DNA from: Escherichia coli
GTDB lineage: Bacteria; Pseudomonadota; Gammaproteobacteria; Enterobacterales; Enterobacteriaceae
Direction: 5' to 3' (one strand)
Assembly: GCF_001677475.2 (NCBI RefSeq)
Contig: NZ_CP015229.1
Length of the DNA: 64,000 nt
The notes below the pieces were generated by a model. It was not told the DNA's origin. It worked only from the letters and a program-made list of their open reading frames with translations, and ran no database searches. The translations under genes and the position numbers were made by a program. Positions 7,201 through 61,835 of this stretch are shown here, piece after piece (within the stretch, counting starts at the first letter, position 1; each line of letters opens with the position of its first letter).

Positions 7201-7965
7201 GGTATCGGTGCCGGTATTGAGAACACCCCCGACGGCATGCAGAGTCAGGTGCTGCTGGCGGCAGACAGGATTGCGATGATTAATCCTGCAAATGGCAACA
7301 CAAAACCGATGTTTGTTGGTCAGGGTGATCAGATATTCATGAATGAAGTGTTCCTGAAATATCTGACGGCTCCCACCATTACCAGCGGCGGTAATCCTCC
7401 TGCATTTTCCCTGACACCGGACGGAAAGCTGACCGCTAAAAATGCCGATATCAGCGGTAACGTGAATGCGAACTCCGGGACGCTCAACAACGTCACGATA
7501 AATGAGAACTGTCAGATTAAGGGGAAACTGTCAGCCAACCAGATTGAAGGCGATATTGTCAAAACGGTCAGCAAGTCTTTCCCCCGCACGAACAGTTATG
7601 CCAGTGGCACCATCACGGTAAGAATCAGTGATGATCAGAAATTTGACCGGCAGGTCATGATACCGCCAGTGTTGTTCCGTGGTGGTAAGCATGAGAATTT
7701 CAACAGTAATAACCAACAGTCATACTGGTATTCAACCTGCCGGTTAAGAGTGACCCGCAATGGTCAGGAGATTTTTAATCAGTCCACGACGGATGCTCAG
7801 GGCGTATTTTCCTCAGTTATAGATATGCCTGCCGGACAGGGGGCGCTGACACTGACATTCACCGTATCTTCATCAGGAGCGAATAACTGGACACCAACAA
7901 CCAGTATCAGCGATCTGCTGGTTGTGGTGATGAAGAAATCCACAGCAGGTATCAGTATCAGCTGA
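4264..7965 (+). CDS. J: Lambda-like tail tip / host specificity protein J (1233 aa) with divergent C-terminal receptor-binding region
   Basis: N-terminal about 800 aa match lambda J as recalled ([21 protein letters not shown]...); C-terminal third diverges and is longer. Confidence 0.9.
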
Positions 7966-12414: not shown

Positions 12415-13548
12415 TTAGAACTGATAAACCAGACCTAAAGCGACAATATCATCGGTAGAGATGCCGTTGGCAGCGTAGAAGCTGTCATCTTCATCCAACA
12501 GGTTGATTTTATAGTCAACATAGGTGGACATGTTTTTATTGAAATAGTAAGTCGCGCCAACATCGGCGTATTTAACCAGATCTTTATCATCAACACCTGC
12601 CGGGTTGTCTGCACCACCGGCAGCGTGCAGGTCACGGCCTTTAGACATCAGGAAAGAGACTGCCGGACGCAGACCAAAATCAAACTGGTACTGTGCAGTA
12701 ACTTCAAAGTTCTGGGTTTTGTTTGCAACAGCATAATCGCTGTCGCCAAACGGGGTCATATTACGCGTTTCTGAATACATGGTTGCCAGGTAAATATTGT
12801 TAGCATCGTATTTTAGCCCAGCAGTCCACGCGTCTGCTTTATCACCACCCGCCGCAGTATGGTTAACCTGGTCATTGGTGCGGTCAGAAGAGGTGTATGC
12901 CGCACCAGCGCTAAAGCCCATGCCTAAATCATATGTTGTGGAAAGACCCCAGCCGTCACCGTTTTCATGGCGAACATCACGTCCGTTGTTGGTGCCTTCC
13001 TGACCATTACTGGCACCTTCGTTGTTACCTTGATACTGCACCGCGAAGTTCAGACCATTTACCAGACCGAAGAAATCAGTATTACGATAAGTCGCGACGC
13101 CATTGGCACGACCAGTCATAAAGTTGTCTGCATTGGTATAAGAGTCACCGCCAAATTCAGGCAGCATATCGGTCCAGCCTTCGATGTCGTACATTACGCC
13201 ATAATTACGTCCGTAATCGAAAGAACCGTAATCTGCAAATTTCAATCCGGCAAATGCCAGACGGGTCCATGACTGGTTTTTTGAGGATTCAGTGTTGTTT
13301 GCCTGAATATTGTATTCCCATTGACCGTAGCCAGTGAGTTGATCGTTAATTTGGGTTTCGCCTTTAAAACCCAGACGCGCATAGCTCTGGTCGCCATCTT
13401 TCGCTGAATTATCAGAAAAATAATGCAGGCCATCAACTTTGCCATACAGATCTAATTTGTTGCCGTCTTTATTATAAACTTCGGCTGCATGTGCAGCACC
13501 TGCGGCGAGCAGGGCAGGAATTAAAAGTGCCAGTACTTTGCTTTTCAT
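12415..13548 (-). CDS. ompN: Outer membrane porin OmpN (OmpC/OmpF family)
   Basis: 377 aa porin with signal peptide and C-terminal ...LVYQF; located between uspF and micC/ydbK as in K-12. Confidence 0.85.
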
Positions 13549-13775
13549 TGAATAAATCCTTTAGTTATTTTATTTGCCTTTTATCCCCATTTCGGGGAGT
13601 GAAAACATCCTAAAGGAGAAGTTCAGTTAGCCGATAAATATCATTTGTTACGCCTTAAGTAAAACCTTAATCAAATAATTCCTCTGAAATGACAATAAGT
13701 CTTGTGAATGTATCGAAGATAATACATACAAAATAAAAATTATACTTTTAATTTGCTATACGTTATTCTGCGCGG

Positions 13776-23031: not shown

Positions 23032-23937
23032 TTAGCGGAATTTACGTCGATACTCGCCTGGCGTCATCCCAAAGCGTTGCTTAAATACCGTTGAAAAATG
23101 ACTCTGGTCAGAAAATCCCCAATGAAAGCCGATGCCTGCCAGTTTTTCATCATCTGCGGCATGGCGAATCGCATCTGCACAAAAATCGAGACGACGGTTA
23201 CGAATATATTGCGCGACTACCAAACCTTTATCGGCAAACATTCGGTACAAACTACGTACTGACATACCTGTCTCTCCGGCTATCCACTCCGGGCGTAATA
23301 TCTCTTCGCGAATATTATCGTCTATCAACGTAACCACTTTTTGAAACTGACGTTCACGGCGAGGTTGGACAGATTCCCGCTGATGAAGTACTGGGCGAAG
23401 CAGACACACCATCGCCTGTAGCGCAGCTTCACTTTCTGTTTCAGAAAGTGCCGGATTATTCATGCTCTCCTGTAACAGGCGATGACTGAGTTGCACCATG
23501 GGTAAGTCAGCGTCCAGTCTTTCTGCGCAGACAGGTTTTTGATGGGGAAAATATTGTTCCAGCAGAGTGCGTGGCAAAAGTAATGAAATCTGTTTAGAAG
23601 ACTCCTGCCAGTAAAGCGAACAGGGGCGTGAGGCATCGAGTAACGTAATATCGCCAGCGCCAATCTGCACCTGACGCTCATCCTGCTCCATTATTGCCTG
23701 ACCACTAAGCTGAAAAACGGTGTAAAACCAGGCATCGTCGCTGCCTTTTATTTCCTGCCAGGTGCGGGATAAATTCACCCCGCTGGTTGTCACGGTACTC
23801 AGCTTTAGTCCTTTGGCAAAATGCGTATCCAGTACACCCGTGTAACGCTCAGTCAGCAGGCGTCCGGTAAAATTTCCGCATACCTGATTGATTTGGGAAA
23901 GCCATTGCTGAAACTCATTATCCACTGCGGGGTTCAT
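23032..23937 (-). CDS. feaR: AraC-family transcriptional activator of feaB/tynA
   Basis: 301 aa with C-terminal AraC-type HTH. Confidence 0.9.
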   Translation of the reverse strand: MNPAVDNEFQQWLSQINQVCGNFTGRLLTERYTGVLDTHFAKGLKLSTVTTSGVNLSRTWQEIKGSDDAWFYTVFQLSGQAIMEQDERQVQIGAGDITLLDASRPCSLYWQESSKQISLLLPRTLLEQYFPHQKPVCAERLDADLPMVQLSHRLLQESMNNPALSETESEAALQAMVCLLRPVLHQRESVQPRRERQFQKVVTLIDDNIREEILRPEWIAGETGMSVRSLYRMFADKGLVVAQYIRNRRLDFCADAIRHAADDEKLAGIGFHWGFSDQSHFSTVFKQRFGMTPGEYRRKFR

Positions 23938-25730: not shown

Positions 25731-28004
25731 TCACTTATCTTTCTTTAGCGCCCCTAGCGTTGGCGTTTCGTCAAAGAAGTTCCATGGTTTAAGCAGAGTA
25801 TGTACCCATTCGGTCGGCATAATCGGCCACTCTTCGGCGCGGGCCACATGTGTGGTGCCGGTGGTCATCCAGACAACGGCGTCGGTGTTGTCCAGCGACT
25901 CGTTATCTTTACTGTATTGTTCAAGACCGGTGTCATGAGTAGAACGGTTCGGATATTTGCCTTCCGGGAAACGCTCGCCAGGATGATAACGCGTTACCCA
26001 GAGCTGCTTGTCCATAAAGCTTAAACGATGATAGATCCACTCGTCCGGCGCGAACTGGGCACCTTTTGCTACCGGGTGAGTACCACCTGCATAAGGAATA
26101 ATTTGATAGGAAACCGGATTGCCCATGCGATTCTCTTTGTTCAGGTTACTCAACAGACGAATCGTGCCCGGATCAAACTTCTGCGCGGCATCCTGTTCAT
26201 TGCCGATGTTGTAGTGATTAACTTGCATGGTACTGGTGCGTGGGCCACCGGCAGTGTTCGGTTTTACCACTGGGTCCATCGCCACCAGGCTGTTATTCTC
26301 GCCATCTACATCCAGATCGAGGCGGAAATTATAAATATGTTGGTGTGTAGTACCCACGATATTGTGATCGATAAGCGTGCCGTAGCGCGTGTCATCTTTC
26401 GCCGTCTCATCGTGCATGGTTTTCGCTTTAACACCTTTCACCGCTTCGATGCCCGTAGCCCCGGCATCAATGCCAATAGTGCCGTTTTCATGGAAGATCC
26501 AGTCAAAAATGTAGTCATAGTTACCCACTGTACTGATCCAGCGCACCACTAACTCCCGGCGTTCGGTACTGACGTTGGGCTGGCCCATTTCCTGATGCTT
26601 ATACTCCGGCCCGGCATAACGTTCAAATACCGCGATAGCGCGAGGGATCTCAATCGGCACGCCAGTGTAGTCGGCGATGGTTTCATTAAGGAGCACTGCG
26701 TTAGACGGGGCATCTTTACCACGAGCAATTGGTGAGGTTAGCGTGCCCATACCGTAGTCACCAGAGTCCAGATACGCTTTAAAGTACCAGCCAATATCAG
26801 GATCACCGTAAGGCACAATCATGCCGCCGAGAGAACCTTCGTACATGACTTTGCGTTTGGTGCCATTGTCGTTATAAGTCACGGTGGAGATCATCGGCCC
26901 GACGCGAGAGTTCATGCTGAGGTGAAAATCCCAGTTACGCCAGTGAATCATATCGCCAGTAATGGTGTAATTTTTACCTTCAGGCTCGATGATTTGCATA
27001 GGTTTAACTGCCGGAGCAACGCGGTCACGGCCATCAAATGGGCGTGCGGTCATTGGCACCGGAACTACCGGACCTTCTTCAATCTTAACGATTTTTTTCT
27101 GTTCTAAGTCAACGACCGCCACCAGGTTTTCGATGGGATGTGCCCAGTAGTTACCATCACCGACATCAAGATAGCTGATGACTTTGAGCAACCGGGCATC
27201 TTGTTTCAGGCCATCTTTACCATCGAAATAACCTACGGTCAGCGGCGTGGTAATCACTTTCTTCGCATCAGTAATACCGCGCTTCTTCACGGCAGCGGCA
27301 AATTCTTCACTGTTGTTAATAATGTTCTGCACACTGGCGAAATCATCCAGCAACACCATACCGTGGGCGTCTTTAATGGGTTGCCAGGAGAGCAGTTTGT
27401 TGTTTTGCAGATCCACCACCGCTTCGATGATATGTTTGCCGTCGAGCATAATGACGTCGGCTTTGCGTGGCTGGTCAACTGGTTTGTTTTCGAGCGCAAA
27501 CGCCCAGACAGCTTCTTTATCTGGCGGTAGCAGGGAGATCTCAGTAAAACGGGTATTGCGTTTGAAGTCCGCGGAAGCTTTAACAATTTCAACGGTCTGT
27601 TTAATTTCGTCCGCAGTTAGCGCATTAAGTGGGTGAGGGCGCTTTTCTACCTGAAAGGTTTGATCCAGCCCGGATTGGAAAACATCGTTAATAAAGGTGT
27701 CAGAAACCCAGGCTTTATTGTCTTTCATCACTACCGGTACTTGCAGTGCCAGAGGCTGACCATTAACAATTGCTGTTTGCGCACCAGGCTTCACTTTCAC
27801 GTACGCGCCATCTTTAATCAGAGTAAAGATCTGGGCGTAGTCGTCCCACTGTACATCGGCACCAAATTCTTTAAGCGTTTTATCCATTGGCACCATATGC
27901 GCTTCACCACCGTGGGCAAATACCGGCGCTTGCCAGGCGAAACTTAAGGCGACTGCCAACGCCAGGGCTGTTTTACGGGCAGAATACAGAGAGGGGCTTC
28001 CCAT
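25731..28004 (-). CDS. tynA: Periplasmic copper/topaquinone amine oxidase
   Basis: 757 aa from MGSPSLYSARK... (SD GAGG upstream); the ORF-track start at 28040 is rejected. Confidence 0.95.
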   Translation of the reverse strand: MGSPSLYSARKTALALAVALSFAWQAPVFAHGGEAHMVPMDKTLKEFGADVQWDDYAQIFTLIKDGAYVKVKPGAQTAIVNGQPLALQVPVVMKDNKAWVSDTFINDVFQSGLDQTFQVEKRPHPLNALTADEIKQTVEIVKASADFKRNTRFTEISLLPPDKEAVWAFALENKPVDQPRKADVIMLDGKHIIEAVVDLQNNKLLSWQPIKDAHGMVLLDDFASVQNIINNSEEFAAAVKKRGITDAKKVITTPLTVGYFDGKDGLKQDARLLKVISYLDVGDGNYWAHPIENLVAVVDLEQKKIVKIEEGPVVPVPMTARPFDGRDRVAPAVKPMQIIEPEGKNYTITGDMIHWRNWDFHLSMNSRVGPMISTVTYNDNGTKRKVMYEGSLGGMIVPYGDPDIGWYFKAYLDSGDYGMGTLTSPIARGKDAPSNAVLLNETIADYTGVPIEIPRAIAVFERYAGPEYKHQEMGQPNVSTERRELVVRWISTVGNYDYIFDWIFHENGTIGIDAGATGIEAVKGVKAKTMHDETAKDDTRYGTLIDHNIVGTTHQHIYNFRLDLDVDGENNSLVAMDPVVKPNTAGGPRTSTMQVNHYNIGNEQDAAQKFDPGTIRLLSNLNKENRMGNPVSYQIIPYAGGTHPVAKGAQFAPDEWIYHRLSFMDKQLWVTRYHPGERFPEGKYPNRSTHDTGLEQYSKDNESLDNTDAVVWMTTGTTHVARAEEWPIMPTEWVHTLLKPWNFFDETPTLGALKKDK

Positions 28005-41716: not shown

Positions 41717-41760
41717 CGTCCTGATGCTGGACGTTCTAATTTTTAGCATGTGATACCTAA

Positions 41761-49977: not shown

Positions 49978-50592
<615 letters not shown>

Positions 50593-57436: not shown

Positions 57437-58438
57437 TCAGAGTTTAGCGAATTTTTCGAGGGTGCGAATGAGCTGTGTGACGAAGCCATATTCGTTATCG
57501 TACCAGGCGACCGTTTTCACCAGTTGTAAATCGCCCACGGCGGTAATTTCCGTTTGCGTGGCATCAAACACCGAACCGAAATGGCTGCCAATGATATCGG
57601 AAGAGACTATTTCTTCATCGGTATAACCAAATGACTCGTTATTGTTTGTCGCCTTTTTAAGCGCGTTGTTCACCTCTTCGGCAGTCACTTTTTTTCCGAG
57701 AATCGACACCAGTTCAGTGACCGAACCTGTTTTCACCGGCACGCGTTGCGCATGACCTTTCAGTTTGCCGCTCAGTTCCGGGATCACCAGACCAATGGCT
57801 TTTGCCGCCCCCGTAGTGTGGGGAATGATATTTTCTGCCGCTGCGCGTGAAGCACGTAAATCTTTACCACGCGGGCCATCAACCAGTGACTGGGTGCCAG
57901 TGTAGGCATGAATGGTCGTCATCGTGCCGACTTCTATCCCGAAACTGTCATGCAAGGCTTTGGCCATCGGCGCAAGGCAGTTAGTGGTGCATGACGCCAC
58001 GGAAACAATAGTGTCGTTGCCATCCAGAGTGTCGTCATTGACGTTATAAACGATGGTTTTCATTTCACCGGCAGGGGCGGAAATCAACACCTTCTTCGCG
58101 CCAGCATCAAGATGTGCCTGCGATTTCTCGGCGGAGGTATAAAAGCCAGTACATTCGACAATGATTTCTGCACCTTTCGCTTTCCACGGAATATTTTTAG
58201 CCTCTTTTTCGGCGTAAACCGCGATGCTTTTTCCATCAACGATAAGTGAATCTTCCGTAAAATCAACGCTCCAGGGGAACGGTCCGTAGTTTGAATCATG
58301 TTTCAGCAGGTAGGCGAGAATTTTTGGGGAAGTGAGATCATTAATAGCGACAATGTCTATGTTGCTTTTGACTTCAAGTAATCGACGCAACACCAGTCGA
58401 CCGATACGACCAAAACCGTTAATACCAACTTTACTCAT
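57437..58438 (-). CDS. gapC: Glyceraldehyde-3-phosphate dehydrogenase C (intact ORF)
   Basis: 333 aa uninterrupted GAPDH ORF (catalytic SCTTNC). Confidence 0.9.
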
Positions 58439-59401: not shown

Positions 59402-59575
59402 ATGAAAAAACTGGCATTTATCTTGGTTATGGGAACGCTTGTTTCCTTTTATGCCGATGCCGGGCGCAAACCCTGTTCTGGTTCGAAAGGGGGGATCTCA
59501 CACTGTACGGCAGGCGGCAAATTTGTTTGTAATGATGGTTCTATTAGTGCATCGAAAAAAACATGCACTAACTGA
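59402..59575 (+). CDS. ydcA: Small secreted Cys-rich protein YdcA
   Basis: 57 aa ([20 protein letters not shown]...) with SD GGAGG; below the ORF-track cutoff, translated manually. Confidence 0.8.
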
Positions 59576-59646
59576 AGTGTAAAAGGGGTGCCATGAGAAA
59601 ATGAATCCGCTAGTCAGATGCGCGGGGAAAATTCCCGCGCTTGCCC

Positions 59647-59839
<193 letters not shown>

Positions 59840-59854
<15 letters not shown>

Positions 59855-59905
59855 TCGTTGGCCTCGGTTGATAGAAATATCGGTCGGGGCCTTCGTCTTT
59901 CTGAT
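59840..59905 (+). ncRNA. sokB: Putative SokB antisense RNA (coordinates approximate)
   Basis: Expected antisense partner opposite the mokB start/leader; placement by analogy to hok/sok, not by sequence match. Confidence 0.3.
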
Positions 59906-60194
59906 TCCCGGTTAGCCTGAAAACAGAAAGTCTCAGGCACCCGTGAGCATCCTATGTGGTTTCCTTAGGGACGAAAATAATCACCTGACGAAATTGCGTG
60001 CTGTTTTCCAGAATTTTTCGTTATTCGGTTTAGCCAGTTTAATCATTCGTTACTCTCTTCATTCCAATGGCATTAATCTTCTCTGCAATAATTGTTGTAA
60101 AAATGTGACGCAAAGAGGTTTTTGGTCGTAAGTAATTACCGTCAAGTGCCGATGACTTTCTATCAGGAGTAAACCTGGAAGAGAGACAACGGTA

Positions 60195-61835
60195 ATGAAT
60201 ACAACTCCCTCACAGCGATTAGGTTTTTTGCATCACATCAGGCTGGTTCCGTTATTTGCCTGCATTCTTGGCGGTATCTTAGTTCTATTCGCATTAAGTT
60301 CAGCCCTGGCCGGCTATTTCCTTTGGCAGGCCGATCGCGATCAGCGTGATGTTACTGCGGAGATTGAGATTCGGACCGGGTTAGCGAACAGTTCAGATTT
60401 TTTGCGTTCAGCCCGGATCAATATGATTCAGGCCGGTGCTGCGAGTCGTATTGCGGAAATGGAAGCAATGAAGCGAAATATTGCGCAAGCCGAATCGGAG
60501 ATTAAACAGTCGCAGCAAGGTTATCGTGCTTATCAGAAGAGGTCGGTGAAAACACCTGCTGATGAAGCCCTCGACACTGAATTAAATCAACGCTTCCAGG
60601 CTTATATCACGGGTATGCAACCTATGTTGAAATATGCCAAAAATGGCATGTTTGAAGCGATTATCAATCATGAAAGTGAGCAGATCCGACCGCTGGATAA
60701 TGCTTATACCGATATTTTGAACAAAGCCGTTAAGATACGTAGCACCAGAGCCAACCAACTGGCGGAACTGGCCCATCAGCGCACCCGCCTGGGTGGGATG
60801 TTCATGATTGGCGCGTTTGTGCTTGCCCTGGTCATGACGCTGATAACATTTATAGTGCTACGTCGGATCGTCATTCGTCCACTGCAACATGCCGCACAAC
60901 GGATTGAAAAAATCGCCAGTGGCGATTTGACGATGAATGATGAACCGGCGGGTCGTAATGAAATCGGTCGCTTAAGTCGTCATTTACAGCAAATGCAGCA
61001 TTCATTGGGGATGACAGTAGGGACCGTTCGACAGGGCGCGGAAGAGATTTATCGTGGCACCAGCGAAATTTCCGCTGGCAATGCGGACCTGTCATCTCGC
61101 ACCGAAGAACAAGCGTCGGCAATTGAACAAACTGCCGCCAGCATGGAGCAACTCACTGCGACGGTGAAACAGAATGCGGATAACGCGCATCATGCCAGCC
61201 AACTGGCGCAAAAGGCTTCTATTAAAGCCAACGATGGCGGGCAGACGGTTTCCGGTGTAGTAAAAACGATGGGGGCTATCTCCACGAGTTCGAAGAAAAT
61301 TTCTGAGATCACCGCCGTCATCAACAGTATTGCTTTCCAGACGAATATTCTGGCACTGAATGCTGCCGTTGAAGCCGCGCGAGCGGGTGAGCAAGGGCGT
61401 GGATTTGCCGTTGTCGCCAGCGAAGTACGGACACTCGCAAGCCGCAGCGCCCAGGCGGCGAAAGAGATTGAAGGCTTGATCAGTGAATCAGTTAGGTTAA
61501 TTGACCTGGGGTCGGATGAGGTGGCAACGGCAGGGAAAACCATGAGCACTATTGTTGATGCCGTCGCGAGTGTCACACATATCATGCAGGAAATCGCCGC
61601 CGCCTCGGATGAACAAAGCAGAGGCATAACACAGATTAGCCAGGCGATTTCTGAAATGGATAAGGTGACGCAACAGAATGCTTCTCTGGTAGAAGAGGCC
61701 TCAGCGGCGGCGGTGTCCCTTGAAGAACAGGCGGCACGATTAACTGAGGCGGTGGACGTATTCCGTCTGAACAAACATTCTGTGTCGGCAGATCCTCGCG
61801 GAGCTGGTGAACCAGTTAGTTTCGCTACGGTGTGA
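60195..61835 (+). CDS. trg: Methyl-accepting chemotaxis protein III (ribose/galactose sensor)
   Basis: 546 aa; two TM segments, HAMP, highly conserved MCP signalling domain. Confidence 0.95.

Follow-up and report, generated by a model that had tools for sequence, protein, structure and literature searches.

What directs the transcription of trg in Escherichia coli, and how much of the answer can be recovered from the DNA in front of the gene? The stretch that we analyzed, referred to below as the window, is 64,000 nucleotides long and comes from a strain other than K-12. At the site of interest it is E. coli hokB-trg DNA: of 5426 complete E. coli genomes, 5415 contain a match to the 901 bases around the site, the best of them being 98.8% identical, and annotation of this segment gives hokB and trg. 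Relative to K-12 the window is collinear and ~97-98% identical, and the gene order at the locus in E. coli 042 and K-12 is aldA, gapC, cybB, (rydC), ydcA, yncP, hokB/sokB, trg, ydcI. The gene served by the promoter is a 546-aa ORF on the + strand (60195-61835), whose counterpart in E. coli 042 and K-12 bears the annotation trg, and its product is the ribose/galactose methyl-accepting chemotaxis protein. Elsewhere in the window, the 8.9-kb ydbA pseudogene of K-12, with its IS2 and IS30 insertions, is missing (41717-41731), and gapC, a pseudogene in K-12, is intact and encodes 333 aa (57437-58438).

A sequence-only reading of this DNA had proposed that trg is preceded by a sigma-28 (FliA) promoter consisting of two boxes 11 bp apart, and both boxes and the gap lie exactly where it placed them, on the strand that it gave. 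The -10 element, GCCGATGA (60148-60155, + strand), matches the consensus GCCGATAA at 7/8 positions, carries the essential CGA core at 60150-60152, and is 39 nt from the trg ATG at 60195. Upstream of the 11-bp spacer TACCGTCAAGT (60137-60147, + strand) is the -35 element, TAAGTAAT (60129-60136, + strand), which matches TAAAGTTT at 4/8 positions, with its fit to the consensus confined to the leading TAA. Taken together, the two boxes have five mismatches to TAAAGTTT-N11-GCCGATAA. The TAA covers positions equivalent to -32 and -30 of the aer promoter, where mutations severely reduce aer activity (PMC2859248). We also considered an alternative -35 register, GTAAGTAA with a 12-bp spacer, which likewise matches at 4/8 positions, but across genera it is the TAA belonging to the 11-bp register that is invariant, and the alternative was rejected. 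One element had been overlooked, a CRP binding site at 60101-60122 (AAATGTGACGCAAAGAGGTTTT, + strand). It matches the consensus AAATGTGATCTAGATCACATTT at 13/22 positions, with a perfect left half, AAATGTGA, and a poor, barely recognizable right half, and the 22-mer ends 6 bp (60123-60128) ahead of the -35 octamer.

Boxes as weak as these raise the concern that the motif arose by chance and has no function, with trg being transcribed from elsewhere. To score the site we built a FliA matrix from 51 published FliA ChIP-seq sites (Fitzgerald et al. 2014), leaving out trg to avoid circularity. The matrix scan, which had been suggested as a check on the proposal, recovered the site at 14.9 bits, but only as the sixth best match in the window (fourth and seventh with two other training sets), and a random Markov-1 window is expected to hold ~0.4 matches scoring this high, so this part of the check did not place the site above chance. 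A consensus search allowing at most three mismatches found two other sites in the window, at 13611 and 50070, and missed the trg site because of its five mismatches. The composition of the DNA also favors a chance origin, as octamers of the GCCGAT type are over-represented in the window: GCCGATGA occurs 5 times versus 2.8 expected and GCCGATAA 7 times versus 2.1 expected.

Six look-alike matches in the window score at least as high as the trg promoter. These are found in ompN (12559-12586, - strand, on the sense strand of the gene), in the ompN-micC spacer 129 nt ahead of MicC (13611-13638, + strand), in a segment without a match in the K-12 stretches compared (7425-7452, + strand), in feaR (23314-23341, - strand), in tynA (26949-26976, - strand), and antisense in azoR (50070-50097, + strand). 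Those with a K-12 counterpart have the same or almost the same sequence in it, and after mapping the look-alikes to K-12 we found none of them among the FliA ChIP-seq peaks of PMC4183435 or in the predicted-promoter table. With no FliA binding listed in K-12, we set the look-alikes aside as non-functional or undetectably weak. The same result lends some weight to the concern about chance, given that matches equal to or better than trg (12559, 13611, 26949, and 50070) are unbound by FliA in K-12. Sequence statistics alone do not lift the trg site above chance in a window of 64 kb; its significance comes from its position and its conservation.

Experiments published for K-12 speak directly against a chance match. 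The FliA ChIP-seq motif reported for trg is the 28-mer TAAGTAATTACCGTCAAGTGCCGATGAC (Fitzgerald et al. 2014, PMC4183435 Table 2), and window positions 60129-60156 are identical to it letter for letter, the -35 box being its first 8 bases. This sequence coincides with a strong FliA ChIP-seq peak, centered at 1490461 and 23-fold above threshold (PMC4183435 Table 2), and normalized trg RNA falls from 108 in motile MG1655 to 4 in a fliA deletion, a significant 27-fold change (PMC4183435). Microarray data place trg in the sigma-F regulon as well, with expression 2.0-fold down in a fliA mutant and 2.2-fold up on sigma-F induction (Zhao et al. 2007, PMC1935009). The proposal of a FliA promoter for trg thus holds, with boxes and spacing equal to those of the published alignment, and so does its assignment to flagellar class 3, for which both FliA occupancy and FliA-dependent expression have been published for the identical K-12 28-mer. 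Adding to this a start site mapped just downstream of the motif in K-12 and the cross-genus comparison described below, we regard a functionless chance motif as a negligible prospect.

Start-site mapping, the other check that had been suggested, is compatible with the motif and raises no conflict. RegulonDB lists the K-12 promoter trgp1 (ECK120034223) with a TSS at 1490463, supported by evidence codes HIPP and HTTIM, and gives its sequence as ...gccgatgactttctatCaggag with the start region ...gccgatgactttctatCagg (PMC4183435 Table S3). This TSS is the C at window position 60164, which is the ninth base past the -10 octamer and is found 20 bp downstream from the center of the motif. A distance of 20 bp from the motif center is the average for FliA promoters according to work from the same laboratory as PMC4183435. 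At aer, tar, fliC, tsr, fliA, fliL, and ves, transcription begins at the sixth or seventh base past the octamer (PMC4183435 Table S3), so that the high-throughput start of K-12 trg is 2-3 nt farther from the -10 box than the starts of individually mapped sigma-28 promoters. By analogy with those promoters the start would fall at 60161-60162, and we annotate a probable start region of 60161-60164 on the + strand. We consider a start at 60164 compatible with a FliA promoter but not ideal. Counted from 60164, the trg 5′ UTR extends to 60194 on the + strand and within it positions 60177-60186, GGAAGAGAGA, are rich in purines and resemble a Shine-Dalgarno sequence.

The CRP site has experimental support of its own from K-12. 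CRP binds the trg regulatory fragment in gel shift assays with an affinity similar to that for aer (Hollands et al. 2010, PMC2859248). A trg100::lacZ fusion was found to be sigma-28-dependent and inactive without FliA, and in assays that compared CRP+ with CRP- strains while a plasmid provided FliA regardless of CRP, the fusion was directly activated by CRP (PMC2859248). The distances separating the CRP site from the promoter elements are the same at trg as at aer, and at aer CRP is centered at -49.5 (PMC2859248).

A weak -35 box and a need for CRP could also be read another way, since CRP usually partners the sigma-70 holoenzyme: trg would be driven mainly from the hokB-trg spacer by a promoter of the sigma-70 or another type, the FliA site would be minor, and the FliA dependence of trg would be indirect. 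A search of 59500-60400 for TTGACA/TATAAT-like pairs 16-18 bp apart returned none, with 1.2 expected in shuffles. Furthermore, deletion of fliA leaves almost no trg RNA and ChIP-seq places FliA physically at the site (PMC4183435), and the trg fusion is inactive without sigma-28, whose plasmid-borne supply did not depend on CRP (PMC2859248). An indirect effect of this kind is, in our estimation, very improbable. We instead conclude, with a probability of roughly 0.97, that 60101-60164 is trgp1, a promoter of flagellar class 3 that is read by FliA and on which cAMP-CRP acts directly as an activator.

For K-12, FliA occupancy, FliA dependence, CRP binding and activation, and the mapped start have all been demonstrated in published experiments. 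The window is identical to K-12 trgp1 over 60101-60179 save for one base outside all of the elements, a G instead of A at 60128, directly upstream of the -35 box; a second difference, A instead of C, lies in the leader at 60180. With only these two flanking bases different, we infer that the promoter would behave in the same way in this non-K-12 strain.

In the mechanism that we propose for trgp1, region 2 of sigma-28 would read the extended -10 octamer GCCGATGA and region 4 would read the weak -35 octamer, TAAGTAAT, located upstream beyond the 11-bp spacer. CRP, bound to its 22-bp site ~50 bp before the start, would recruit polymerase, as shown for aer. Transcription would then begin ~6-9 nt past the -10 box, leaving a leader of ~31 nt ahead of the trg ATG. 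Under such an arrangement trg would be made only once the flagellar cascade yields free FliA, and its expression would be boosted when glucose is low.

Whether the arrangement is retained outside of E. coli was addressed by scanning species-representative genomes with Trg residues 1-300, which yielded 80 orthologous loci at 64-88% identity. These represent ~20 enterobacterial genera, including Escherichia, Citrobacter, Enterobacter, Lelliottia, Leclercia, Kosakonia, and Phytobacter, with Pseudescherichia, Salmonella arizonae, Siccibacter, and Franconibacter also among the orthologues. The homologous site is the top FliA-matrix match within 300 nt upstream of the trg start codon in every one of the 80 loci and scores at least 12 bits in 79 of them. 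Among control 300-nt windows from the same orthologous loci (n = 3229), only 2.2% reach 12 bits and 0.65% reach 14 bits, and it is this comparison that separates the trg site from a chance match. The distance from the site to the ATG is 38 nt in Escherichia and 43-52 nt in other genera, with Enterobacter mori as the one exception. For Salmonella, we sought trg binding data in the 2017 and 2020 Wade-laboratory preprints, and in the portions of these that were available trg is not discussed individually.

Within the site, conservation is concentrated in particular bases. Of 78 distinct orthologous sequences, 77 keep T1, A2, and A3 of the -35 box; positions 4-6 are variable, and a consensus -35 box is present in 0/80 trg orthologues. 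GCCGAT of the -10 box is invariant in 77/78 distinct sequences, 72/78 retain the non-consensus G of position 60154, and the full octamer GCCGATGA is found in 64 of the 80 loci. The spacer is 11 bp long in 80/80 loci and is unconserved in sequence, its columns carrying a mean information of 0.49 bit. The multi-genus alignment contains a further conserved block immediately ahead of the -35 box, namely AAATGTGAC and a run of T residues after it. The CRP half-site TGTGA, which in the window occupies 60104-60108, is present at all 80 loci, at 20 nt from the -35 box in six of them (the Escherichia spacing) and at 21 nt in the other 74. The CRP-sigma-28 activator complex has been reported to be position-sensitive.

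This conserved footprint is what would be expected of a functional, activator-dependent sigma-28 promoter. We speculate, tentatively and with more doubt than confidence, that the weak boxes, meaning the TAA-only -35 box and the fixed non-consensus G, may be under selection for CRP dependence across Enterobacteriaceae, and that the CRP-sigma-28 complex may tolerate, or may originally have used, a geometry other than -49.5. That weak boxes and CRP dependence are connected is our inference, and it is in line with the argument that Hollands et al. made for aer.

The leader and the DNA upstream of the promoter show further features across genera. The UTR block AAGAGAG is nearly invariant, and ~14 nt of UTR found in other genera are missing from Escherichia. 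At the ribosome-binding site (window 60177-60194), AAGAGAGTCGACGGTCATG is almost invariant across genera, beyond what a Shine-Dalgarno sequence would need. The trg leaders outside of Escherichia contain an inverted repeat, GCGTG-TTTT-CACGC, after the predicted start. We considered this repeat as a conserved 5′ UTR hairpin and rejected it, as RNAalifold gave no consensus pairs in the non-Escherichia orthologues. Single-sequence folds of the leader were no more stable than shuffles (z from -0.06 to 0.58), and in pair counting 85% of cells were paired, with covariation not above that of shuffled controls. The Enterobacter mori locus (L039) has an insertion of ~190 nt between the trg promoter and the ATG, and this insertion contains CCCCAGTCACTTACTTATGTAAGCTCCCGGGGATTCAC, probably the core of an ERIC/IRU repeat. 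Farther upstream, ~40 nt before the CRP site, the genera other than Escherichia have a terminator-like hairpin, GCCAGCGG-TTTTT-CCGCTGGC-TTT; at the position of this hairpin Escherichia has the hokB/sokB toxin-antitoxin locus, with an Rfam sok match at 59791-59942.

Within E. coli the promoter region varies little where it is present. The K-12 44-mer (60125-60168) occurs unchanged in 3252 complete genomes and the window version in 339, the two differing only at 60128, and ~4010 genomes carry the 44-mer at no more than two differences. In E. coli 042 the -35 box is TAAGAAAT. Another ~600 complete E. coli genomes match the window only up to ~60057. In one of these, designated L084, the sequence jumps from ~60053 to ~61391, a deletion of ~1.3 kb in which the promoter and its CRP site are lost together with the leader and approximately the first 399 codons of trg. 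We note that the L084 deletion joins intergenic DNA (~60021-60053, ..RFSQFNHSLLS) to the Trg signaling domain, with no promoter evident in the sequence. Tls, which represses the expression of flagellar genes, was recently shown to be encoded by a truncated trg allele of phylogroup B2 (PMC12623472), and the deletion in the ~600 genomes corresponds to this B2 Tls allele. The window carries the intact trg allele.

The motif is the already published trg promoter, an ordinary feature whose site, sigma factor, activator, and start site are known from the literature and RegulonDB. What is mildly new is the conservation in ~20 genera of the entire CRP and sigma-28 architecture with its weak boxes, together with the 1-bp difference in the spacing of the CRP half-site. 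The locus also serves as a calibration point for reading raw sequence: such a reading picked out a real alternative-sigma promoter, yet the matrix alone could not separate it from five non-functional look-alikes. The evidence was carried by gene context and phylogenetic footprinting and not by the motif score.

Compared with other class 3 promoters, trg has both common and distinct features. It has in common with tar, fliC, tsr, and motA the layout of two octamers around an 11-bp spacer, FliA occupancy, and FliA-dependent expression. Those four promoters have near-consensus -35 boxes and showed no clear CRP binding (PMC2859248), whereas trg keeps only the TAA of the -35 box, a weak box that is conserved across genera; at tsr, CRP binds 132.5 bp upstream and has no direct effect (PMC2859248). 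The closest counterpart is aer, which with trg makes up the two known CRP-activated sigma-28 promoters. In K-12, the aer promoter consists of the CRP site AATTGCGATCTAAATCAAATTA, 6 bp, the -35 box TAAAGATA, 11 bp, and the -10 box GCCGACAT, the same layout as that of trg in the window. Both promoters have a non-consensus -10 octamer, and both serve chemoreceptor genes located outside of the flagellar clusters. They differ in how well the CRP site matches its consensus, at 17/22 positions for aer and 13/22 for trg, and in how the start was determined: that of aer was found by primer extension at the sixth base past the octamer, and that of trg, known from high-throughput mapping only, lies at the ninth.
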